Positions 53,646 through 63,900 are shown, numbered from the stretch's first letter. The stretch is 64,000 nucleotides of DNA from Alphaproteobacteria bacterium (GCA_965243135.1 OZ251539.1:4992001-5056000), one strand, 5' to 3'. The notes: generated by a model from the letters alone, not told the origin. A program made the numbers and translations.

Positions 53646-54947
53646 ATGCGCGGATGGGTGCAGGAAGATTACGGACAACTGGTCGAACCCGGCCGGGTTC
53701 ACCGCCGGGTCTACACGGATCCCGACATCTTCGAGATGGAGATGGAGCGCATCTTCGGTCGCGCATGGATCTTCGTCGGCCACGACAGCATGATCCCCGA
53801 ACCGGGCGACTACGTAACCGCGGAAATCGGTCGGCAGCCGGTTATCCTGGTCCGCAACAAGGACGGCATGCCGCGGGTGCTGCTGAACCGCTGCGCCCAT
53901 CGAGGCGCCAAGGTCTGCAACGAGCTCCGGGGCAACGCGCGGCAATTCACCTGCCTGTATCACGGCTGGAGCTACGACACCGACGGCAGGCTCGTCGGCG
54001 TGACCATGCCGGAAGGAAGCGCGGGGGATTTCAAGCCCAACCGGTTCGGCCTCGCCCAGGCTCCGGGAGTCGGCCATTATCGCGGCTTCATCTTCGCCAG
54101 CCTCGCGCCCAAAGGATCCGGGTTCGACGAGTTTCTCGGATTGATGAAAGCCAATATCGACGATCTCGTCGACCGGGCGCCCGACGGCGAAATCCTGCTC
54201 GACGCAGGAAGGCATCGTTACAGCTATCGCGGCAACTGGAAGCTGCAGATCGAGAACGTTCTCGACTCCTATCACGTGCCTTTCAGCCACGCATCGACCG
54301 TCAACAGCAAAGGCGAGCAGTTCTCCCGGCGCGAGGGCGACGCGAAGGGCGCCGCCGTGATCGACCGGACGAAGGACAAGACCGCGGATTCCTGGAAGGG
54401 ACGGCGCTCCTACGCCGTCAGCTTCGGACACGGCTGGACCAGCAAGACCGACCTCGACGACAAGGGCCGGTCGAGCCCCGCCTACGACGCCTACAAGGCG
54501 GCGCTCGCCGCCAAGGCCGGGCAAGAACGGATGGAGGAGATCCTCACGCCGCGGTTCCACAACTCGCTGATCTATCCGAGCTGCTCGGTGATGGGCCTCA
54601 ACATCCACGTGCGCGTCGTCAGGCCGGTGGCGGTCGACCGCACCGAGGTGATCGTCTATCCGATCCGCCTCAAGGGCGCGCCGGACGAGATGAATACCCG
54701 AAACGTCCGGCTGCTCAACGTCACGCATTCCGCCGCCTCCTTCGTGCAGACCGACGATCTCGAGTCCTTTCGCCGAACGCAGGAAGGGCTGCGCAGCCTG
54801 CAGTCCGACTGGGTGGACATCTCGCGCGGCCTCGGTGAGGAAAAACAGGATCCGCGATGCAACGCGACCACTGAGTCGGCGATGCACGAAATGACGGTCC
54901 GCGCCCAGTACGCAGCCTGGCGATATTACATGTCGGGCGGCGCTTGA
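53646..54947 (+). CDS. Rieske aromatic ring-hydroxylating dioxygenase alpha subunit
   Basis: NRCAHRG...CLYHGW, NWK...EN..D.YH...H and DD.E motifs. Confidence 0.93.
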   Translation: MRGWVQEDYGQLVEPGRVHRRVYTDPDIFEMEMERIFGRAWIFVGHDSMIPEPGDYVTAEIGRQPVILVRNKDGMPRVLLNRCAHRGAKVCNELRGNARQFTCLYHGWSYDTDGRLVGVTMPEGSAGDFKPNRFGLAQAPGVGHYRGFIFASLAPKGSGFDEFLGLMKANIDDLVDRAPDGEILLDAGRHRYSYRGNWKLQIENVLDSYHVPFSHASTVNSKGEQFSRREGDAKGAAVIDRTKDKTADSWKGRRSYAVSFGHGWTSKTDLDDKGRSSPAYDAYKAALAAKAGQERMEEILTPRFHNSLIYPSCSVMGLNIHVRVVRPVAVDRTEVIVYPIRLKGAPDEMNTRNVRLLNVTHSAASFVQTDDLESFRRTQEGLRSLQSDWVDISRGLGEEKQDPRCNATTESAMHEMTVRAQYAAWRYYMSGGA

Positions 54948-55459
54948 TGGACGTTTTCGCTCTCTCCGACGGTTCGGGGAGCGTTCCGGGCGTCGATCGG
55001 GAGCCGTTCGAGCTGTTTCTGATTCACGAGGCGCGGCTTCTGGACGACCGGCGGTTCGAAGACTGGATGGCGCTGTTTACCGAGGACGGGCTGTATTGGG
55101 TGCCGGCCTCGCCCGACCAGGCGGATCCGCATGGCAGCGCCTCGCTGTTCTTCGACGACCGGGAATTGATGAAGACGCGCATCGAACGCCTCCGGCATCC
55201 TCTGATCCACGTCCAGACTCCGCCGTCCCGCACCAATCACATGTTGGGCAATATCGTGGTCGAAGAGGCGACACCGGACGGGTATCTGGTCAGTTCTTCC
55301 GTATGGGTGGCCGAATACAGGCTGGATGCGCAACGCGTCTTTGCCGGGCGCCAGTTCCACCGCCTGCGGGAGGACGGGGAAGGTTTCAGGATCGCTCTCA
55401 AGCGCGTCCACCTCGTGAACTGCGATTCGGCCTTCGAGGCGCTGGCCGTTCCGATATAG
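54947..55459 (+). CDS. Ring-hydroxylating dioxygenase beta subunit
   Basis: EARLLDDRRF..W..LF, YWVP, Q.PPSRT.H and K.V.LVNCD motifs. Confidence 0.92.
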   Translation: MDVFALSDGSGSVPGVDREPFELFLIHEARLLDDRRFEDWMALFTEDGLYWVPASPDQADPHGSASLFFDDRELMKTRIERLRHPLIHVQTPPSRTNHMLGNIVVEEATPDGYLVSSSVWVAEYRLDAQRVFAGRQFHRLREDGEGFRIALKRVHLVNCDSAFEALAVPI

Positions 55460-55727
55460 CTTGCTGCGGGCAGCTATCGTGCGCGCGGCGCGGTGCGGAA
55501 ATCGGCGGTCACACTGGACTTATGCAAGAGCATCCAGGCCACGCGACCGGGCTGGCGCTTCTTTCCGTCACCAGTCAGCGCGGCTCGGTCAAGCTTGTGA
55601 TCGCTCGGATAGCGTGCGCATCCTGGATCGCACGCCAGGCTTTCGCCGACGACGTGCCGTTTCCGCAAGGGCTTCGTCGCTACGAACGATTCCAGCGGCG
55701 TCGGTCCAAGCAGGGGTGGTTTCCCGT

Positions 55728-56213
55728 TCATTGGCTCAATGTCTTCCGCAAGTCCTTCATGAGCAAGAACAGGTGATGGGGAACCGTGGGACTCGGCTCG
55801 AATTCCAAGGCTTCGTACCATGCCCGCGCCTCTTCGTCCTTGGCATGGACGAGGAGCGACGCCGACGATGTCGGCGGCCGTGGCGGTTCTGAGCAGAGCA
55901 TCCTCGACGAGCGCCTTGCCCAAGCCGCGCCCTTGACAGGTTCGGTCGATCGCGAGACGAGCGAGGGGCAACACCGGAACCGCATGCTTGGCCAACCCTT
56001 TGCCGATAGGCGCAGAGGCATGCTCCACCGCTCCCGTCGCGAGGCTGTAGTAACCAAGCACTGCGGATTCCCGGCAGACGACATAAGTCCGGGCGCTTTC
56101 GGCCTTCCGACTCGCCAGCGCGAACCGCTTCAGAAAACGGTTGAGCGGTTCCTTCCCGCAATCATCTCGCGTTGCCTCGAGTTTCTCGACCGATCCCCAT
56201 GCTCCGATATCAC
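55728..56213 (-). pseudogene. GNAT acetyltransferase toxin (TacT/AtaT-like), frameshifted
   Basis: Pieces DCGKEPLNRFLKRFA, GYYSLA, LARLAIDR..QGRGLGKAL and LVHAKDEEARAWYE in different frames. Confidence 0.8.
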
Positions 56214-56485
56214 TCCAGTACGCTCTTCTCAGCGAGCAATCGGGCCAAGCGCGGCTTGCCGACGACCGGGCGGTCGAGAATATCCCGGAAGGTTCGCCAC
56301 CGCCGTTCGTCGAGGCGGAACATCCGACGGTCGATCAGGGCGTCCTCGGCAGCGTTGATTCCTGCCTCGAGCAGAAACTCCGCAACGCTCTTGCGCGACG
56401 ATGCCGCAGCTTGCTGCAGCAACGCCTTTGTGCCCGGGGTGGCCCGAACCTCTATGTGCTCCGACTTGTTTTCGGCGATGGCCAC
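56210..56485 (-). CDS. DUF1778 (TacA-like) antitoxin
   Basis: KSEHIEVR.T...K.LLQQAA.....V.EFLL...F.LD...W..F...LD.P; GGAGG RBS before the GTG. Confidence 0.85.
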   Translation of the reverse strand: MAIAENKSEHIEVRATPGTKALLQQAAASSRKSVAEFLLEAGINAAEDALIDRRMFRLDERRWRTFRDILDRPVVGKPRLARLLAEKSVLE

Positions 56486-56636
56486 GAACGTTCCTCCAAT
56501 CGGCTCGGTCGGCATTCTACAATACGGATACTGTACGGACAATAGCTCGTCGACTCGATTTCGATTCACCTTCCTCCTTCCTCTAACCGTTCAGTGTTCG
56601 AATCTGAAACTGACGGCTCGGTACAAAATAATGACT

Positions 56637-57701
56637 TTATTGATCAGTAAGATGTTCTAGATGCAAAACTCTCTCCCTAATTTCAATATTCTCTTGGCGC
56701 AACTTTTCATTTTCTCGTACAAGCTCGTTAATTTTATCATACATTACCTTCGAGGTTGCGTCCATTTTTTCTGTGTTGGTGATTGTTTTTTCTGTAACTA
56801 ACTCTATTTTCTTCCTAATCTCTGGAACTAGGGAATTGTATATTCCAGTTACGTTGCTATAAAATCCTCGAAAAAGAACAAAAACAGCGACTAAAAATGC
56901 CGCTATAGCAACTATACTATATCCTTGAATCTTCTTGACAGTTTTCGCAAATTTCTCCGCCTTTTCCTCAGATTTTCTTGCGCTTTTTTCGGCACTACTT
57001 GCCACTAATGGAATAGAGCTTCGAATTGGGACTTCAGCCTTATTTTCGTCAAACTGTCTGGCGGCCTTATTTATATAGTCACGAATATCGTCCCAAAATT
57101 TCTTGTCTTCTTTATAAAGAGCTTTTTGGCCGAGTTTCCCGGAGCTAGACGTCTTTGTCAATTCTACCCAAATGAGGCCTTCGTTTCTCGGTATAGCGTA
57201 GTCTTCATCCGTTAAATTGTGGAGGGGAATGCATAATTTCCCCCAAAATCCCGGGTCAACTAATGGTCCAGTCCCCAATAAAATACCTCGGTGCACATGC
57301 CGGATTTGAAGATTGAACCTCATCGCAATGAAGTTAGGAAGACGAAAATCTAGATCACATTCTACAAAGACTATAGAATTAGCTTTGACTATGAGATCCT
57401 TATCTCCTAATACTCTTTCTAACTTACCTTTGTCATTATATTTGTAGGCGTGACGGCCGATACGCCCTTCGTAAGATGCCTTCTTTAATCGCGATTTTTC
57501 CCTACCACCACAATAGAATGGTGAAATTGCTCCCGTTTTGTCTACATACTTCATTATTTCATCAGCAGAAAGAAGTGCAGGTTCGACATCCGGAAAAGGA
57601 TCTACTTGACCAGAATTTATAAAATCATTCGCCCGTCGTTCTCCGTCACTCCTGTCCAGTATTTTTTGATCCCTACTATTCTTGGTATTCATATCAGACA
57701 T
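56637..57701 (-). CDS. dCTP deaminase/dUTPase-fold protein with degenerate active site, C-terminal TM helix and coiled coil
   Basis: LLS..EI...G.ISPF, ASYEGRIG, RLP and VDPGF.G.L...HN match the Dcd fold. The RSS motif is replaced by QIR and the catalytic Glu by Pro. TM helix YSIVAIAAFLVAVFVLF. The gene is AT-rich. Confidence 0.75.
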   Translation of the reverse strand: MSDMNTKNSRDQKILDRSDGERRANDFINSGQVDPFPDVEPALLSADEIMKYVDKTGAISPFYCGGREKSRLKKASYEGRIGRHAYKYNDKGKLERVLGDKDLIVKANSIVFVECDLDFRLPNFIAMRFNLQIRHVHRGILLGTGPLVDPGFWGKLCIPLHNLTDEDYAIPRNEGLIWVELTKTSSSGKLGQKALYKEDKKFWDDIRDYINKAARQFDENKAEVPIRSSIPLVASSAEKSARKSEEKAEKFAKTVKKIQGYSIVAIAAFLVAVFVLFRGFYSNVTGIYNSLVPEIRKKIELVTEKTITNTEKMDATSKVMYDKINELVRENEKLRQENIEIRERVLHLEHLTDQ

Positions 57702-58732
57702 ATCTCCGATTCGATGATTCTAGATCCAGAAAATCCGCACCAATCAACTTTTTTACCAATATCTAATTCAATTCGATCAATGAATTTTCTAAGACCGCTG
57801 TTCGGATTCTTAATGTCTTGCTCCACGCCAACATAATCGAGATGATTCAAAACCAGTCGATTCGGCGTGTTGACATCAAGAGCGCGTTTTACGATTTCGG
57901 AATTAAAATAGCCAACCCTGCGCAATTTTCCGGTAACGGTCGTATATTCGCGCAAATCACTTTGGCATTCGATTTTACTGGCGATTTCTTCCCATGTCGT
58001 TTCCTCGGGAAGAGGACCGGAATCCCCGGCAACCCGGATCGGATAAGAGCGAATGACCATTGTGATATCATCGACATCCATGGGGCTCAATCCGGCTTCC
58101 GACAGAGCGCCGGCGGCTGTAGTAGATCGAGAAGTTGCTTTAGGCCAGTAACCGCCTTCGAGCAAAGAAAGCCCGAAACCCTGCGTGCCTTCTATGACGA
58201 CGCGGTTCCCGCTCTCGATTCGCTCGCGAAGATAACTCGATGTATCTTTGACATAACTCTCCAATCGAGCGTGATCTTCTGCAAACGCCGAGCGCAAAGG
58301 GAAATTCGCCGCTTCGCGAGCGACGGAAGCCATGACCGCGGCGCCCACGCCCGATCCGGTGGAGCCGATCGTTTCCGTCAATCCTGCTGCCTTCTCCCAT
58401 TCCCGATGTTCCGCCCTGATGATATGGGCGTAAGCGCTGACATGAATGCGATCCCGCGGATAATCGAGCTTTTCGATCTCGGTCAGCAGCACATCGACAT
58501 CGATATAAGATCCCGCCGGCAGCACCACATCAACATTCCCGTCGACGCAAGCGGCCGGAAGCTGGCGCAAAACGTGCTTCGTTCCCGATCTATCGTAAGC
58601 CGTATGCCCGGAATTAGGCCCCCCGACGCGCACCGCGACAGCCGGGGCTCTTGAGCGCCTCACTATTTCCAAGGCTACCTTTCCCTTGCCCTCCGAGCCG
58701 AACTGACCCCCGATCACGATCGAAACAGGCAT
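57689..58732 (-). CDS. Adenylosuccinate synthetase-like protein, PurZ/PurZ0-type
   Basis: GGQFGSEGKGK, GGPNSGHT, IGSTGSGVG, IEGTQG, PIRVAGDSGP, EYTTVTGKLRRVG and LNHLDY motifs; short, 347 aa. Confidence 0.85.
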   Translation of the reverse strand: MPVSIVIGGQFGSEGKGKVALEIVRRSRAPAVAVRVGGPNSGHTAYDRSGTKHVLRQLPAACVDGNVDVVLPAGSYIDVDVLLTEIEKLDYPRDRIHVSAYAHIIRAEHREWEKAAGLTETIGSTGSGVGAAVMASVAREAANFPLRSAFAEDHARLESYVKDTSSYLRERIESGNRVVIEGTQGFGLSLLEGGYWPKATSRSTTAAGALSEAGLSPMDVDDITMVIRSYPIRVAGDSGPLPEETTWEEIASKIECQSDLREYTTVTGKLRRVGYFNSEIVKRALDVNTPNRLVLNHLDYVGVEQDIKNPNSGLRKFIDRIELDIGKKVDWCGFSGSRIIESEICLI

Positions 58733-60636
58733 GGTTCCGTTCCCTTGTCCTGAATGCGCCCAGCATATCGTTCGATATCCGACATGTCGCCATCATTGAC
58801 GAAAATATCATGCGCAGATGACATCAGCTCGCCGACCCTTCTTTCGACTTCCGCGTTCGATGTCTTGTCGAAGCCGACATCGCCGTCGCGCAGGTCGAAT
58901 CTCATGCGCCGCGTCTTTTCCGGCGCGTCAATGTACACATGAAAAAAGCGAACCCCGAACCGCTCGACCATAAAAGCGTTGTCGTCCGGAAACCGCAAGC
59001 CGTCGACAACGATCTTCTCGGCGGCGCCTGCCAGCTTGATCGTCTGTTCGTTCAACCAACGCTGACGCCCGGAGGCATTGATTTCCTCGCCGAGCGTCTG
59101 CCGATTGGATCGGGTAAGCGGACGATTTTCTGCCTTCAGCATGTCGTCCAGAACCAGACTGAACCGCGTATATGAGAATCCCTTGCGCTCCAGTATGCGT
59201 GCAAGGGTGGTTTTGCCGGCGGCGATAGGTCCGCTGACGCCGACCACTACAGCCGTTGGTTCCCTTTCGAGCCGCGGAATGATGAGGGGCGGTTCTTCTT
59301 CGGTTCCAAGCGCCTCCGACATGCCGGCCATATGAAACGTGCCGACGAGAGCCGACGTGATCGCGTCGAGTTCGTCATGGGTTACCTTCTGTGTTTCGAA
59401 AGCGCCGGTTATTCCGAATTCCCGCAACCCCGCTTTCAGCCACTCCTCTCCGGCGCCTTTGCGCGGAATGCGCATGATGTCCTGGGCAGCGCCGGGATAG
59501 CTTTCGATCACCGGTATGCCGCGTTCGCGGAACGTCCGCGCGAGCCGCATGCCCCTCGCCGTCAACTTCTGCATGCTTTGAATGAGACAGGGATAGACGT
59601 TCACCCCGCGTCGCTTGAGCACGCGTTCGGATTGGCGCATGATTCCAAATTCCGCCCGCCCCGGATCGTCGTCCTCCACCGAAATGCGTCCCGCGGGAAG
59701 ACACAGGGGAGAATCGATCGAGACGATGTGCGGAAGGGCGCGACTCGTCTTTTCGATCAGGTCTTCGTCCGAGGACACCAAGGCCACGCAGGCCTCGCGT
59801 CCGTGAAGCAGACACCAGCCGCTGGGTCGTTCCTCTGCGCCTGTAAGATCGATGCCGACGACCCGCAGATCCGCGAATGCGTCATCGAACAGATCTTTGA
59901 AGTGCGAACGCTTCGCGGTGAACGCGGCGGGCGGCGGCGACGCCTTTGGCAAATTTCTCCAGCCCGAAGGGGCCGACCAATCGACAAAGCATGTATTTTC
60001 AACGAACATATCCGATTGTCCGCCTATGCGGGACACGGCCTCGTCGAAAATCGCCCCCATTGCCGCGATGTCGATTCGATTGTAGTGAATCAGTTTATGT
60101 AATGCGTTCCGATCTCCACGAACGTATTTGTGCCACAACAAAACCGCTTCAGCCCCGTCCATTTCCGGCAGTTCGTCCCGCAAATCGACGCCGATCTCCT
60201 TTTCGATAGCTTTCTGGCCTCCTGTCAGACCAACTCGCCTGCAAAGATACATGAGATCGACATGCGTTTCCGGAAATACGACTTCTGGGTATTCCTTCTT
60301 GATGAATTTTGCGTCGAAGCGGATCCCGTTAAAGGTCACCAGCGCCTTTGCGCGGCTCGCATCTTCATGTAACGGGGTAGGATCTTGTCCTTTGATGATC
60401 GTCTTGGCGGTTCCTTCAAAAGACCATCCGATGACGGTAATTTCGTCGTAGTAATGGCTGAGGCCTGTCGTCTCTATATCCAAGAATAGAACGAGTTCTG
60501 GGAATGAAGCGCAAACGCCGAGCTGACGACGCAACTTCCGTGGGATCGTCTTCTTCCCTTTTCCGGTTTTGCGCTCCGTTATCGGGCTGCGTGAATCTCG
60601 GGGGTCTGCAATTGCGGTGCCGCTCATCCTCTTCAT
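58714..60636 (-). CDS. Fusion of YprB-like (RNase_H_2) DEDD exonuclease, DUF429 RNase H-fold nuclease and P-loop nucleotide kinase
   Basis: Exonuclease: FLDIETTG, TFNG..FD, YNRID. DUF429: GIDL, IDSPL, ESYPG, DELDA. Kinase: GPIAAGKTT, VVDGLR. Confidence 0.85.
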   Translation of the reverse strand: MKRMSGTAIADPRDSRSPITERKTGKGKKTIPRKLRRQLGVCASFPELVLFLDIETTGLSHYYDEITVIGWSFEGTAKTIIKGQDPTPLHEDASRAKALVTFNGIRFDAKFIKKEYPEVVFPETHVDLMYLCRRVGLTGGQKAIEKEIGVDLRDELPEMDGAEAVLLWHKYVRGDRNALHKLIHYNRIDIAAMGAIFDEAVSRIGGQSDMFVENTCFVDWSAPSGWRNLPKASPPPAAFTAKRSHFKDLFDDAFADLRVVGIDLTGAEERPSGWCLLHGREACVALVSSDEDLIEKTSRALPHIVSIDSPLCLPAGRISVEDDDPGRAEFGIMRQSERVLKRRGVNVYPCLIQSMQKLTARGMRLARTFRERGIPVIESYPGAAQDIMRIPRKGAGEEWLKAGLREFGITGAFETQKVTHDELDAITSALVGTFHMAGMSEALGTEEEPPLIIPRLEREPTAVVVGVSGPIAAGKTTLARILERKGFSYTRFSLVLDDMLKAENRPLTRSNRQTLGEEINASGRQRWLNEQTIKLAGAAEKIVVDGLRFPDDNAFMVERFGVRFFHVYIDAPEKTRRMRFDLRDGDVGFDKTSNAEVERRVGELMSSAHDIFVNDGDMSDIERYAGRIQDKGTEPCLFRS

Positions 60637-60989
60637 GCCGTCACCTTCCGAGCGATCCGTGCGCCTGACGGCTTCCGTTCACCGATTTCCTCATTCGCAT
60701 GCCAAGTCTGCTGACAAATCCAGACTCGCCGGAAGATTCCGCCTTGTGCCGACGAACGTCATCAGGCCGCCGACTCGATGCTCCGCCTCGCCCCGGTTGT
60801 CCAGCATGTCATTATTAGCCTTCGCCGTTCCGATGCAAACCGTTTCCGGCCGTTTCCCCTCGGTATCTTGATCCGGGGAACGCCTCGGTCGCCCAGCCTC
60901 TTGCTTCCAGTCTACCAACTGTCGAGAATGACGGGTATGCTTGAACTTGTAAAACGGTATCCACAGCCAGCTTTGAGGAACGACCTACA

Positions 60990-63900
60990 TTGACGCAGCT
61001 TGCTCAGACATGGACGCAAGGAACATCTCCCCTGCCGACGTCGGGGAACCGGGACGCGCTGGAAGTTCACAGGGAACGTTGGCTGGAAGCGGGCCAGCGC
61101 CGCGACGATGCGTTCGCTCAGGACGCTTTGGAGGCGGCGGGCGAGCTGCTCGACGCTGTATTCGGCAACAGCCCGTATCTCAGCCATAGCCTGATCACCG
61201 ATCTTCCGTTCGCTCGGCTGTTGATCGAGAGCGGCCCGGACGCCGCCTATGAGGCGGCCCTTGGCGCGGTGCGCGACGGTGGCGATCCGGGAAACGAATC
61301 CGGGCGGGACTTGATGAAGCGCCTCCGGGTCGCCAAGCGTCAAGCCGCTCTTGCGATCGGTATGGCCGACATCGCTTCGGTCTGGCCGCTGGAACGGGTG
61401 ACCGGAGCGTTGGCGGACTTCGCGTCTGCGGCCCTGAGCGCGAGTTGCCGCCATCTGCTGCGCGAATTGCATAGAAGAGGCCGCTTCGCCCTGCCCGATC
61501 CCGACGACCCGGAAAAGGAGTCCGGCCTGATCGTCCTCGGCATGGGCAAGTTGGGCGCGCGCGAACTCAACTATTCCAGCGATATCGACCTGATCCTGCT
61601 CTTCGACCCGGAGACGACCCCGTATACGGGAGACGGCGATCTGCAGCAGACGTTCACGCGGCTTGCCCGCAACCTGGTGTCCCTGATGGACGAACGCACG
61701 GCGGACGGATACGTGTTCCGCACCGACCTCCGGCTCCGGCCCGATCCGGGGTCGACTGCGCCCGCGATCTCGACCCATGCGGCCGAAATGTATTACGAGA
61801 GCGCCGGGCAGAACTGGGAGCGCGCCGCCATGATCAAGGCGCGCCCGGTCGCCGGCGACGTCCCGCGGGGCGAGGCGTTTCTCGAAGTGCTTCAGCCGTT
61901 CATGTGGCGACGGCATCTCGATTTCGCCGCCATTCAGGACATCCAGTCGATCAAGCGGCAGATCAACGCGCACCGGGGCGGCGGCCAGATCGCCATCGAA
62001 GGACACAACGTCAAGCTGGGACGAGGCGGCATCCGCGAAATCGAGTTTTTCGCGCAGACGCAGCAACTGATCTGGGGCGGCCGCGACAGAGCGCTGCGAA
62101 CGAGAGGAACTCTGGAGGCGATCGACAAGCTCGTCGCCGCCGGGCACGTGGCGCGGTCGACCGCGAACGAGCTGGCGGCGGCCTACGACTTCCACCGCAG
62201 GCTCGAGCACAGGCTGCAGATGATCGACGACCGCCAGACCCACAGCCTGCCGGAGGACGAAACCGAACTGGCGGGCGTCGCGGCGTTTTCGGGGTTCGAC
62301 TCTACACAGGCCTTTCGCGACGCGGTTCTCGAACAGCTCAGGACCGTTGAGCGGCACTACGCGGCATTGTTCGAAGACGAGCCGGATCTGTCAGGGCCGG
62401 GCAATCTGGTTTTCACCGGCGGCGAGCACGATCCGGATACACTGACGACCCTCTCGGAAATGGGCTACGCCGAACCCGAACGGGTTTCGACGATGATACG
62501 AGCCTGGCATACCGGCCGGTATCGCGCCATGCAAAACACCCGTGCGCGGGAAATGCTGACCGAGCTCACTCCGGCGATCCTGGAGGCGTTCTCCGACTCG
62601 CCCGATCCCGATTCGGCGCTGCTGCGGCTCGACCGGCTCCTCTTGCGCTTGCCCGCCGGAATCCAGCTTTTTTCGCTTTTCACGGCCCATCCGGGGCTGT
62701 TCGAACTCGTCGCGGAGATCATGGGATCCGCTCCCCGTCTGGCCAACACTCTGAGCCGCCATCCGGCATTGCTCGACAGCGTATTGAGCCGCAATTTCAC
62801 CGACCTGCAAATTCCCGATGCCGAAGAACTGGGAGAAGAACTCGCGGACGCCGCTCGCCGAGGACTGATTCGGCTGTTTTACTCTCGGGAATACGGCATC
62901 GAGGAGATGAAGGCCGAGCTTTCGAACGCAGCCCGCGACGCCCGGGACTTCCAGGACTTCCTCGAAATCGAAAGGCGCTGGGCGAGCGACAGAATATTCC
63001 AGATCGGCGTGCACATGCTCAGGGGCCTCTTCTCGCCGACGGAAGCGGGGCGCCCGCTCTCGGATATCGCCGACGTCTGCCTCGGCGCTCTTCTGCCCGT
63101 CATCGAAAACGAGTTCGCGGCGACCTACGGACGCGTGCTAGGCGGCAAGGTCGCGCTCGTCGCCTTCGGCAAGCTGGGCAGCCGTGAAATGACGGTGAGT
63201 TCCGACCTGGACCTCATGTTCGTATACGATCACGATGCCGAAGCCACTGGCTCGGACGGAAAAAAATCCCTTTCTCCCGGCCAATATTACGCGCAGCTGT
63301 GCCGTCGCTTCATCGGCGCGGTTACCGCGCAGACGGCGGACGGCAAGCTGTACGAGGTGGACATGCGTCTCCGCCCGACCGGCAATGCCGGCCCCATCGC
63401 CACGTCGTTCGAAGCCTTCGAGAAATACCAGCGTTCGGAAGCATGGACCTGGGAACATCAGGCCCTGACCCGGGCGCGCGTGGTCTACGCCGAGAGCGAC
63501 CTCGAAGAGCGGATCGACGCCATGACCAGATCCGTTCTGGCGCTCCCCCGAAACCGCGAAGAGCTTGCGGGCGAGGTCGCCGGAATGCGCGAACGCATCC
63601 AGCGGGAACATGGCACCGACGACATCTGGTCGACCAAGCACGTTCGAGGCGGGCTTGTGGACGCCGAGTTCATCGCCCAATTCCTGCAGCTGACGCATGC
63701 GGCGGAGATTCCCGAAATTCTCGCAGGCGATCCCATCTCCGTGTTCGAAATCGCGCGGAAGCGCGAACTGATGGATGCCGAAACGGCGCGCAAGCTTACG
63801 GACGCCGTAACCCTCTGGCGCAATCTCCAGGGCATCCTGCGCCTGACGGTGGAAGGCGACTTCGTCGAAGAGAAGGCGCCGCATGGCCTGAAGAGGGTCG

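Follow-up and report, generated by a model that had tools for sequence, protein, structure and literature searches.

A stretch of alphaproteobacterial DNA (the window, 64,000 nucleotides; GCA_965243135.1 OZ251539.1:4992001-5056000) carries, at positions 56637-60636, a cassette of three minus-strand genes, here called P1, P2 and P3. We are almost certain that this cassette is a mobile accessory operon with a PurZ-type enzyme. It is probably a defence or conflict system, to judge from its sequence and its setting: recurrence beside restriction and other immunity genes in many phyla makes it look like an undescribed nucleotide-based anti-phage system. As a first choice for its mechanism, held tentatively, we propose that the cassette would make a nucleotide signal for a membrane effector. 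The three genes are as follows.

58714-60636, minus strand: P1, a three-domain protein of 640 amino acids (open reading frame [ORF] and translation)
57689-58732, minus strand: P2, a short adenylosuccinate-synthetase homologue of the PurZ0 type, 347 amino acids (ORF; PF00709)
56637-57701, minus strand: P3, a Dcd/dUTPase fold with a C-terminal transmembrane helix and coiled coil, 354 amino acids (ORF, fold match and AlphaFold2 [AF2] model)

The ORFs of P1 and P2 overlap by 19 bp (58714-58732) and those of P2 and P3 by 13 bp (57689-57701), as an earlier reading made from the sequence alone (the sequence-only reading) had stated. That reading also described genes that become progressively richer in AT than their host. 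Indeed, the guanine-plus-cytosine (GC) content falls from 0.567 in P1 to 0.529 in P2 and 0.392 in P3, against 0.640 for the window and 0.64 for the neighbouring gene glnE; at third codon positions (GC3) the values are 0.65, 0.54 and 0.35, against 0.785 for glnE.

To describe the cassette beyond the window, we searched a one-genome-per-species collection with a P3 profile and took the best 80 of 138 confirmed places, referred to below by L numbers. Cassette pieces in these 80 loci were scored by tblastn with the window proteins, as five pieces (three of P1, P2 and P3). P2 adjoins P3 in 77 of the 80 loci; the misses are L071 and L073, which lie at contig ends, and L072. P1 is represented by at least one piece in 73 loci and by all three in 69. 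The full set of five, collinear and on a single strand, is seen in 66 of 80 loci, which argues that the arrangement is not due to chance; the proposal that the three genes form a conserved operon is borne out by these counts. In L029, L042 and L053, P1-P2 and P3 lie on opposite strands.

P2 and P3 also occur without P1 in three loci whose contigs continue (L030, L045 and L060) and on conjugative plasmids of Sinorhizobium medicae, where the pair stands beside an AbiEii toxin and a PHD antitoxin (3 of 72,556 plasmid records). These pairs make P2 and P3 the minimal core of the cassette. At least 10 phyla are represented among the loci: Pseudomonadota (alpha, beta, gamma and zeta), Acidobacteriota, Cyanobacteriota, Nitrospirota, Methylomirabilota, Verrucomicrobiota, Bacteroidota, Thermodesulfobacteriota, Myxococcota, Binatota and Chloroflexota, together with Bacillota, which has a P3-only locus. 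In L072 (6109-9848; a Peptococcaceae metagenome-assembled genome [MAG]), P3 stands without P2 between a radical-SAM gene, an Ogt-like gene (6-O-methylguanine methyltransferase DNA-binding domain) and a second radical-SAM gene.

P2 belongs to the adenylosuccinate synthetase family (PF00709, E = 2.3e-50). It scores under the cut-off of the PurZ model (NF038379, 243.4 against 300 bits) and under those of the PurA models (the archaeal-type PRK04293, 244.8 against 368; TIGR00184, 197.8 against 395.55; PRK01117, 161.9 against 402). Its closest solved structure is 7vf6 (E = 4.9e-51), reported as the PurZ0 of Gordonia phage Archimedes (PMC12884076); further solved relatives are Pyrococcus horikoshii PurA (E = 6.5e-46), phiVC8 PurZ (E = 5e-32) and bacterial PurA (about 1e-28 to 1e-30). 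Among phage records, P2 matches 213 genomes, and in the matches listed its identity is 37-40% to PurZ0 of Arthrobacter and Curtobacterium phages, at most 36% to that of Microbacterium phages, 32% to phiVC8 and 31% to S-2L.

The residues of P2 follow the same pattern. In its GSEGKG motif, serine takes the place of PurA Asp13, as in 72 of 76 family members (two have Gly and two have alignment gaps). Asp13 is reported to be 99% conserved in PurA, with Ser in 100% of 147 phage PurZ/PurZ0 sequences (PMC12884076). K269 occupies the position of E. coli PurA R303, as K267 does in phiVC8; R303 is described as contacting ribose O2' (PMC8342488). P2 shares with PurZ0 a two-residue insertion after the IRV loop (IRVAGDSGP; IRVAGxSGP in general form), and its NHxD motif has Asp299, a residue found in 76 of 76 family members. 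Deoxyribonucleotide selectivity of PurZ has been attributed to the R303 region and the V-loop insertion (PMC8342488), and we infer an effect of K269 and the insertion on the substrate specificity of P2. The NKxD-like Asp is kept in P2 (NHLD, 76 of 76) as in PurA and PurZ0, and is gone from ATP-using PurZ. The motifs GSE(G/A)KG, EGTQG and IRVAGNSGP are common to P2 and PurZ0. Ser13, K269, the IRV insertion and the kept NHxD Asp together lead us to read P2 as a PurZ0-type, GTP-dependent enzyme that probably acts on dGMP. The sequence-only reading had called P2 a PurZ0-like synthetase, and both the Ser at Asp13 and the closest solved relative agree with that call.

Public databases name P2 "adenylosuccinate synthetase" and P3 sometimes "deoxycytidine triphosphate deaminase"; "hypothetical protein" also occurs. 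Such labels would suit a housekeeping role in purine salvage, in which the cassette would supply a second PurA and a dUTPase for stress. However, the host has a separate canonical PurA with Asp13 in a GDEGKG motif (G000:C1:4593339-4594607), while P2 is without this essential residue and falls under every PurA model cut-off; in addition, the cassette is missing from all 40 relatives searched, is an insert of foreign composition and travels between phyla. We find a housekeeping role very hard to credit.

We placed P2 in a quick maximum-likelihood tree of 81 rows, rooted on the host PurA, with archaeal PurA left out and three P2 rows dropped for aberrant length. The bacterial P2 family forms one clade (SH-aLRT 85) beside PurZ0 (99) and PurZ (100), and the three-way order is a trichotomy. 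The P2 tree departs from taxonomy, and the locus closest to the window P2 is in a Bryobacterales MAG (72% identity). In the phiVC8 record (JF712866.1; L088), the depositors' note on PurZ reads "similar to Solibacter usitatus [YP_827486]", an early pointer to Bryobacterales relatives. A 2026 study of PurZ0 phages is reported to have sampled at most two prokaryotic PurA homologues per phylum and places four archaeal Ser/Gly sequences near PurZ (PMC12884076).

The constant partner of P2 is a Dcd/dUTPase-fold protein that is predicted to be anchored in the membrane.

57102-57584, minus strand: Dcd/dUTPase-fold domain of P3, about amino acids 40-200 (Foldseek; profile against the PDB)
56859-56927, minus strand: predicted transmembrane helix of P3, about amino acids 259-281 (within AF2 helix 229-306)
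56643-56765, minus strand: C-terminal helix/coiled coil of P3, about amino acids 313-353, variable among relatives (AF2 helix 313-353)

No Pfam domain was found in P3, and it reaches 26.1 bits with the dCTP deaminase model TIGR02274 (dCTP_deam), for which the cut-off is 92.8. The family has 1584 protein matches at E ≤ 0.001. The AF2 model of P3 (pLDDT 86, from a 62-sequence alignment) has as its top Foldseek matches 4xjc (Dcd-Dut) and 8y1w (Thermococcus pacificus dUTPase), at TM 0.71-0.80; matches to Dcd, Dcd-Dut and archaeal dUTPases, including 9ln0 and 2qlp, range in E from 4.7e-11 to 1e-7 with TM of 0.62-0.81. A profile of P3 run against the PDB likewise found the Thermococcus dUTPase 8y1w (E = 2.3e-7).

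The active-site region is both altered and strongly conserved. P3 keeps dUTPase motif III as VDPG(F/Y)WG, with D149 invariant in 62 sequences. The position of the deaminase Glu (E. coli E138, numbering from PDB titles) is Pro159, invariant in 62 of 62; the Arg-Ser-Ser of dUTPase motif II is replaced by Q132-I133-R134, followed by HVHRG; the first dUTPase motif has Glu for Asp (YEGRIG); and the motif-IV Gln position is an invariant Glu180. H161 and N162 are also invariant in the 62 sequences, and the segment R128-T164 is near-invariant across phyla (RFNLQIRHVHRGLLLGTGPLVDPGxWGKLCIPLHNLT). Judged by these residues, P3 is not a dCTP deaminase, so this part of the earlier description "dead dCTP deaminase" stands. 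The word "dead" is too strong: that Glu is missing from archaeal dUTPases too, and no part of P3 is better conserved than the pocket, so that P3 may be an active enzyme. The host has another Dcd-family gene (G000:C1:4184305-4184724; L094) that is also without the deaminase Glu (…IDPGFRGRLIIGLTNLT…) and keeps the R-S phosphate motif; it is probably a Dcd-type dUTPase.

After the fold domain, the C-terminal arm of P3 carries a conserved IRSSI (226-230), and the AF2 model continues as one long helix (229-306) that contains the hydrophobic segment, then a helix at 313-353. We scanned 86 family ORFs from the fetched loci with a 19-residue window (Kyte-Doolittle mean of at least 1.65), leaving unscored the three without an exact DPG anchor. 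Of the 83 scored ORFs, 82 have a window of transmembrane grade beyond the DPG motif on its C-terminal side, most often some 100 residues from it, and the remaining one (L073) is cut by a contig end; the membrane anchor proposed earlier is a predicted feature of the family. The tail past this helix is 34-133 amino acids long in complete members and is poorly conserved in alignments. No longer or fused form of P3 was found among proteins of 621-2000 amino acids, which is weak evidence. A second P3 paralogue, in tandem or nearby, occurs in L008 (5687-6751 and 7007-8164), L011, L029, L041, L043 and L062.

P1 combines two nuclease-like domains with a kinase-like domain.

60022-60504, minus strand: exonuclease domain of DEDD type, about amino acids 45-205 (PF13482 RNase_H_2, E = 2.5e-30, amino acids 50-199)
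59302-59874, minus strand: DUF429-like RNase-H-fold domain, about amino acids 255-445 (weak PF04250 match, E = 0.0097, amino acids 261-440)
58741-59259, minus strand: P-loop nucleoside-monophosphate-kinase-like domain, about amino acids 460-632 (AAA_18, E = 2.4e-8, amino acids 465-584)

The AF2 model of P1 has a pLDDT of 88 and a pTM of 0.85. Its exonuclease resembles that of MrfB (8un9, E = 1.7e-6, profile against the PDB). In a 44-sequence alignment, E55, D108, Y185 and D189 are invariant and D53 is at least 90% conserved; we take these to be the DEDD catalytic positions. The DUF429-like domain is the best-conserved piece of the cassette (median identity 69% over 73 loci, against 47-58% for the others), with a dense invariant block (D263, S306-L311, D322, D324, R327, Y380-D386, H420-A425); its invariant acidic residues include D263, D308, D386, D421, E422 and D424. 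The kinase-like domain, covered by P-loop kinase families at amino acids 465-586 in Pfam, is similar to 3lw7, an AdkA-like protein of Sulfolobus whose solved structure has AMP bound (profile E = 2.5e-9; Foldseek TM 0.80), and its Walker A residues G469, K475 and T476 are invariant in the 44 sequences. Together, the Pfam and profile matches agree with the nuclease-kinase fusion described by the sequence-only reading. In the literature, DUF429 has been placed in the RuvC/YqgF-side clade of RNase-H-like nucleases by Majorek et al., who report occasional fusions to NUDIX or RelA/SpoT domains (PMC3985635).

Neither P1 nor P3 has a tblastn match in 50,697 phage records. For P3, this suggests that it is not a DutZ relative by sequence. 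A phage origin of P1 and P3 was considered, and the zero matches rule against it.

Clustering of all flanking ORFs of the loci yielded several accessory genes. A family of about 250 amino acids, c3, lies beside P3 in 26 of 80 loci and is tightly linked to it (for example, L006:8067-8786 and L019:5077-5832 on the minus strand, among L005-L062). It carries the motifs MQNRYxGDxGDYxK, DGRH, DPDNG and YHH, with Q2, R4, Y5, D8, G10, D11, K14, DGxH, DPDNG, YxH and SxR invariant. Searches of Pfam, NCBIfam and PADLOC gave no match to c3, the PDB gave no meaningful one, and its Atlas clusters are named only "hypothetical protein." A deoxynucleoside kinase (dNK; PF01712, E = 3.2e-26) directly follows P3 in 14 of 80 loci (for example, L061:4578-5201), and an RlmJ-like N6-adenine methyltransferase (PF04378, E = 3.4e-61) lies upstream in 15 of 80 (for example, L059:2899-3744, minus strand), 11 of which also have c3. 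The dNK and the methyltransferase occur in sub-clades of the cassette. A 97-amino-acid protein accompanies eight loci, and in L030 an AlkD-like DNA_alkylation protein follows P3. By tblastn, the window contains none of c3, the RlmJ-like methyltransferase, dNK or c8.

The methyltransferase and c3 raise the alternative of a self/non-self modification module, in which a modified purine would mark host nucleic acid and the P1 nucleases would be the restriction arm. The two P1 nuclease domains with their conserved acidic residues would fit this scheme, as would the frequent company of the methyltransferase and c3, and a preprint ties adenylosuccinate-synthetase operons to N6-adenine methylases and "synthesis of modified bases" (bioRxiv 10.64898/2026.01.15.699771). 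However, the methyltransferase is absent from the window cassette and from 65 of 80 loci, the conserved core has no polymerase, glycosylase or transferase able to install a base in DNA, and the P2-P3 core occurs without any nuclease. We consider a modification module improbable.

The surroundings of the cassette in the window point to an insertion.

54944-55459, plus strand: ring-hydroxylating dioxygenase beta subunit
55460-60990: 5.5-kb inserted island of broken TacT, TacA and the cassette (comparison with G003)
55728-56213, minus strand: TacT-like GNAT toxin, interrupted by a frameshift near 55870
56210-56569, minus strand: TacA-like antitoxin, a neighbour of the cassette and not a member (PF08681, E = 2.9e-20)
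57936-58086: GC and identity breakpoint in the 3' third of P2 (150-bp GC bins of 0.57, 0.51, 0.44 and 0.36)
60811-60839, minus strand: sigma-70-like promoter match upstream of P1 (consensus scan, 9 of 12; a pattern match only)
from 60990, plus strand: GlnE, upstream of the cassette and divergent

As the sequence-only reading had it, the cassette sits between catabolic genes and glnE, with the dioxygenase beta gene on one side and GlnE on the other. The same reading had placed a GNAT toxin-antitoxin pair beside it; the antitoxin is there, and the toxin is present in frameshifted form. The N-terminal two thirds, including the acetyl-CoA motif QGRGLGKAL, are in one frame and the C-terminal LLVHAKDEEARAWYE... 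part is in another, so that the gene is either a pseudogene or the site of a sequencing error; it has no Pfam match at E ≤ 0.001. A search for Rfam-type RNA elements in 55400-61100 gave one chance-level match (E = 0.47) and no riboswitch.

The cassette, traced by P3, is found in 0 of 40 relatives, including four of the same genus (41 genomes were searched, counting the window's own). In one of the same-genus genomes (G003; L100), about 45 bp separate the end of the dioxygenase beta gene from glnE, at the place where the window has 5.5 kb. The dioxygenase alpha and beta genes of that genome are 79% and 76% identical to those of the window, and DNA similarity stops at 55460 and resumes inside glnE. 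No direct repeats or att sites bracket the 5.5-kb insert; the only two-copy matches, of 14-26 nucleotides, lie inside the region.

The insert appears to have a composite history. The last 47 residues of P2 are 34-46% identical to the four closest locus relatives, compared with 60-88% before them. GC and identity to the nearest relatives are both lowered over some 50-100 codons at the end of P2 and throughout P3. In contigs of 10289, 7620 and 730752 bases, P2 relatives are 91, 87 and 87% identical and P3 relatives 53, 68 and 56%, with pairing presumed from equal contig size. The drop in GC, the drop in P2 identity and the weaker P3 identities together indicate, at the level of sequence, that a low-GC donor supplied, as one unit, a replacement for the 3' end of P2 and the whole of P3, and that P3 is a fast-swapping module, exchanged faster than P2. 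Among public sequencing runs, the window stretch is identical in three runs of one study. One metagenome (run X6) has a cassette variant of about 89-97% identity in which 484 other letters replace 55456-57070, joining 55455 to 57071; in this variant TacAT is absent and the P3 C-terminal tail differs. None of the 11 runs listed as carrying the stretch is RNA derived. The P2 sequences of L076 and L077 (Binatia and Dehalococcoidia) are identical, as are those of L036 and L037 (Roseibium and Paracoccaceae); such identity across MAG phyla and families reflects either very recent transfer or mis-binning.

In other genomes, the cassette is located in defence or mobile-element neighbourhoods. In 14 of 80 loci, the 7-kb flanks contain Type I restriction-modification genes (HsdR, HsdS, HsdM and a YgjP-like peptidase). 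We also surveyed the single closest non-cassette ORF on each side in 78 loci (two duplicates dropped), 141 proteins in all. Pfam assigned seven of these to YgjP-like; four each to phage integrase, HTH_31 and HTH_3; three each to N6_Mtase, resolvase, Peptidase_M78, HD and Eco57I; two each to HsdR, HipA, ABC-3C CTD7 and Fic; and one to TrwC relaxase. PADLOC matches were to mad2 (4), Type I MTase (3), capP (3) and prokaryotic Argonaute (pAgo; 2). These counts, which are raw numbers, give the cassette a defence-island setting, with restriction-modification, pAgo, ABC-3C, integrase, resolvase and toxin-antitoxin genes nearby.

The same neighbours, and the plasmid-borne pairs, could instead suggest an addiction or toxin-antitoxin-like module of mobile elements, with P3 as a membrane toxin that P2 (with P1) would restrain through a metabolite or by direct binding. 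P2 and P3 do form a tight two-gene unit with a 13-bp overlap, the pair stands beside toxin-antitoxin genes on conjugative plasmids, TacAT adjoins the window cassette, and the P2 3' end and all of P3 appear to have been transferred together. This idea is set back by the proteins themselves, which are large and enzyme-like with strongly conserved active-site regions, by the rarity of the pair among the plasmid records, and by the chromosomal position of most loci, next to restriction-modification genes. An addiction module is in our view a poor prospect.

We therefore return to a defence function, which we infer from the combination of a mobile, conserved operon, a PurZ-type ligase paired with a membrane Dcd-fold protein, and immunity or mobile-element neighbourhoods; the substrate of P2, the order of steps and the part of P3 as sensor-effector are put forward on the same footing. 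The cassette would be a system against phages or mobile elements, gained by horizontal transfer and centred on the conversion of a nucleotide. Deoxynucleoside monophosphates (dNMPs) would arise when DNA is broken down, whether by the DUF429-like and DEDD nuclease domains of P1 or by the phage; a phage source would explain how P2 and P3 could work alone. With GTP and aspartate, P2 would convert dGMP to N6-succino-2-amino-2'-deoxyadenylate (dSMP), which host PurB could convert to the 2-aminoadenine (Z) deoxynucleotide dZMP. The P1 kinase domain, the accessory dNK and host Ndk would raise the phosphorylation state. The remodelled pocket of P3, with its conserved Arg/His cluster (R128, R134, H135, H137 and R138), would bind the non-canonical deoxypurine nucleotide, and the transmembrane helix would deliver the response at the membrane as abortive infection. 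The sequence-only reading, which our results support in part, had sketched a similar route, in which the nuclease domains would release (d)NMPs or sense infection and a trimeric P3 would be the effector; it had left aside the P2-P3 core, the accessory genes, the breakpoint within P2 and the likeness to the PurZ0-DutZ pair of Z-genome phages.

A different use of the same enzymes is possible, if somewhat unlikely: a bacterial "Z-cluster" that remodels or poisons the nucleotide pool. P3 would then be an active dNTP pyrophosphatase, analogous to DutZ, DatZ or MazZ, that turns dGTP and/or dATP into monophosphates; P2 would make dSMP from dGMP; and host PurB, the P1 kinase and Ndk would carry the product to dZTP. 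Loss of dGTP/dATP and/or build-up of dZTP or of the succino-nucleotide would stall or corrupt the DNA replication of phage and cell, again as abortive infection. Phage biology offers a close parallel. The motifs of P2 are those of PurZ0, and a Dut-like enzyme is reported beside PurZ0 in all 98 PurZ0 phage genomes (PMC12884076), so the P2-P3 pairing could be purely metabolic. The phage pathway is described as completed by host PurB and GMP kinase (bioRxiv 2025.10.22.683976), and the phage Z-cluster as toxic in E. coli, with Z placed in 3.9% of chromosomal A and most polymerases not discriminating A from Z (PMC8342488). A kinase in the cassette and dNK beside it in some loci would serve such a pathway, as would the invariant D149 of motif III in a protein whose closest solved relatives are true dUTPases, also without the Glu. 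A pool enzyme, on the other hand, would not obviously need the conserved transmembrane helix and coiled coil; motif II Arg-Ser-Ser is replaced and the motif I Asp is Glu; P3 is without a match in the phage records; and the cassette has no PurB or dATPase gene. Signal and pool models can both accommodate the kinases and a near-invariant P3 pocket. The transmembrane helix favours the signal model and the phage PurZ0-DutZ parallel favours the pool model.

Several points weigh against a signal-based defence system. The P1 kinase and the accessory dNK (14 of 80 loci) fit a metabolic pathway as well as they fit a signal, and the Dut-like dNTP pyrophosphatase that accompanies PurZ0 in 98 of 98 phages is reported to make dAMP and dGMP (PMC12884076). 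The near-invariant P3 pocket (D149, E180, H161 and N162) would suit an enzyme no less than a sensor. The substrate call for P2 comes from just three residue features, and P2, PurZ0 and PurZ form a trichotomy in a tree built without archaeal PurA. The neighbourhood figures are raw counts without a background rate and include kin loci (L039/L040 and L036/L037). Finally, P2 and P3 match 0 families of PADLOC-DB v2.0.0 (2023), and no system model in it was matched.

Until now, the making of 2-aminoadenine has been regarded as an innovation of phages by which host restriction is evaded, and archaeal PurA as the source of PurZ. The cassette places an enzyme of the PurZ type, with the catalytic Asp likewise replaced by Ser, in a conserved and mobile bacterial operon of at least 10 phyla, beside restriction-modification, pAgo and toxin-antitoxin genes. 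It is conceivable, and we offer it as speculation, that a large and hitherto unnoticed bacterial clade of Ser13 PurZ-type enzymes is used in immunity, with dGMP-derived succino- or 2-aminoadenine nucleotides as signal or poison, read or processed by a membrane Dcd-fold protein, and that this clade is a reservoir of phage purZ. As a corollary, if this were true, the bacterial clade, instead of or besides archaeal PurA, would have given Z-genome phages their purZ, or the reverse. If the cassette is a defence system, it would bring a new immune chemistry (aspartate ligation to a deoxypurine nucleotide) and a fold new to sensors or effectors (Dcd/dUTPase, joined to a transmembrane helix), a possible contest between host and phage over the same unusual nucleotide pathway, and a testable answer to the origin of purZ; thousands of database entries named "adenylosuccinate synthetase" or "dCTP deaminase" would need re-annotation.

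The cassette would fit among nucleotide-centred defence-island operons, and no source that we searched describes it. In PADLOC, P1 has weak partial matches (dCTPase, kinase part, E = 3.6e-6; PDC-S44, DUF429-like domain, 1.8e-5; DEDDh, 3.8e-5; VakA, 1e-4). Neither NCBIfam (June 2026) nor Pfam holds a specific model for the cassette proteins, full-text literature searches found no description, and three 2026 reviews of defence systems contain 0 occurrences of adenylosuccinate, PurA, PurZ, dUTPase or aminoadenine. The sequence-only reading had not recognised the combination as a named system, and these searches returned no name for it. One sentence of a preprint mentions adenylosuccinate-synthetase operons in conflict systems, together with the methylases and modified-base synthesis noted above; the operon meant there may be related to the cassette (bioRxiv 10.64898/2026.01.15.699771).

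That preprint is concerned with PUA-Cal-HAD and PUA-linked systems, which share with our proposal dNMP-type danger signals and dNTP-directed effectors; the RlmJ-like N6-A methyltransferase in 15 of 80 cassette loci is a further common theme. In the part of its text available, it makes no mention of Dcd, RNase-H-like or kinase partners (bioRxiv 10.64898/2026.01.15.699771). Unlike PUA-Cal-HAD, the cassette shows no PUA, Calcineurin-CE, HAD or DrHyd domain among the Pfam matches of P1, P2 and P3 or among the 25 commonest neighbour families.

The phage PurZ0 Z-cluster (Gordonia phage Archimedes and Arthrobacter phage Wawa; PurZ0 and DutZ, often with DmtZ and DUF5664) resembles the cassette in its PurZ0-like enzyme, with Ser at Asp13, EGTQG, the IRVAGNSGP insertion and the guanine-type Asp, and in the pairing of this enzyme with a protein of the dUTPase/Dcd superfamily. 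In contrast, the cassette is bacterial and chromosomal, without phage genes, DpoZ or DmtZ; P3 is of Dcd type with a transmembrane helix; P1 and P3 are without phage sequence match; and P2 falls under the NCBIfam PurZ cut-off in a clade of its own (SH-aLRT 85).

Tal et al. reportedly described, in a preprint, nucleotide-depletion defence genes that include a dCTP deaminase with a kinase-like domain and a dGTPase. The cassette has a kinase-like P-loop domain and a Dcd fold in a comparable defence-island setting, and its P1 kinase has a weak match to the kinase part of the dCTPase model in PADLOC (E = 3.6e-6). Unlike in the defensive dCTP deaminase, its Dcd-fold protein is separate and membrane anchored, with Pro at the deaminase Glu, and its constant partner is an enzyme of the adenylosuccinate synthetase family.

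CBASS, Pycsar, Thoeris and type III CRISPR systems with Cam1-like effectors share with the cassette the proposed plan of a nucleotide-making enzyme beside a small protein that couples a nucleotide-binding fold with a transmembrane helix, as a two-gene core with optional accessories. By Pfam and PADLOC, P1, P2 and P3 contain no CD-NTase, cyclase (including pyrimidine cyclase), TIR, SAVED, CARF, SLOG-type or cNMP-binding domain; the synthetase of the cassette is instead a PurA-family ligase, and its putative sensor fold is Dcd/dUTPase. To our knowledge, neither occurs in those systems.

Kongming, a dITP-signalling system to which the sequence-only reading had likened the cassette and that was not in the 2023 PADLOC library used, turns a deoxynucleotide, by conversion and a kinase step, into a non-canonical purine dNTP that serves as the immune signal. 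The cassette would likewise combine a deoxynucleotide conversion with a kinase step to make a non-canonical purine dNTP. It differs in having no adenosine deaminase, HAM1 or SIR2 domain in its Pfam matches and would rely instead on aspartate ligation and on another effector.

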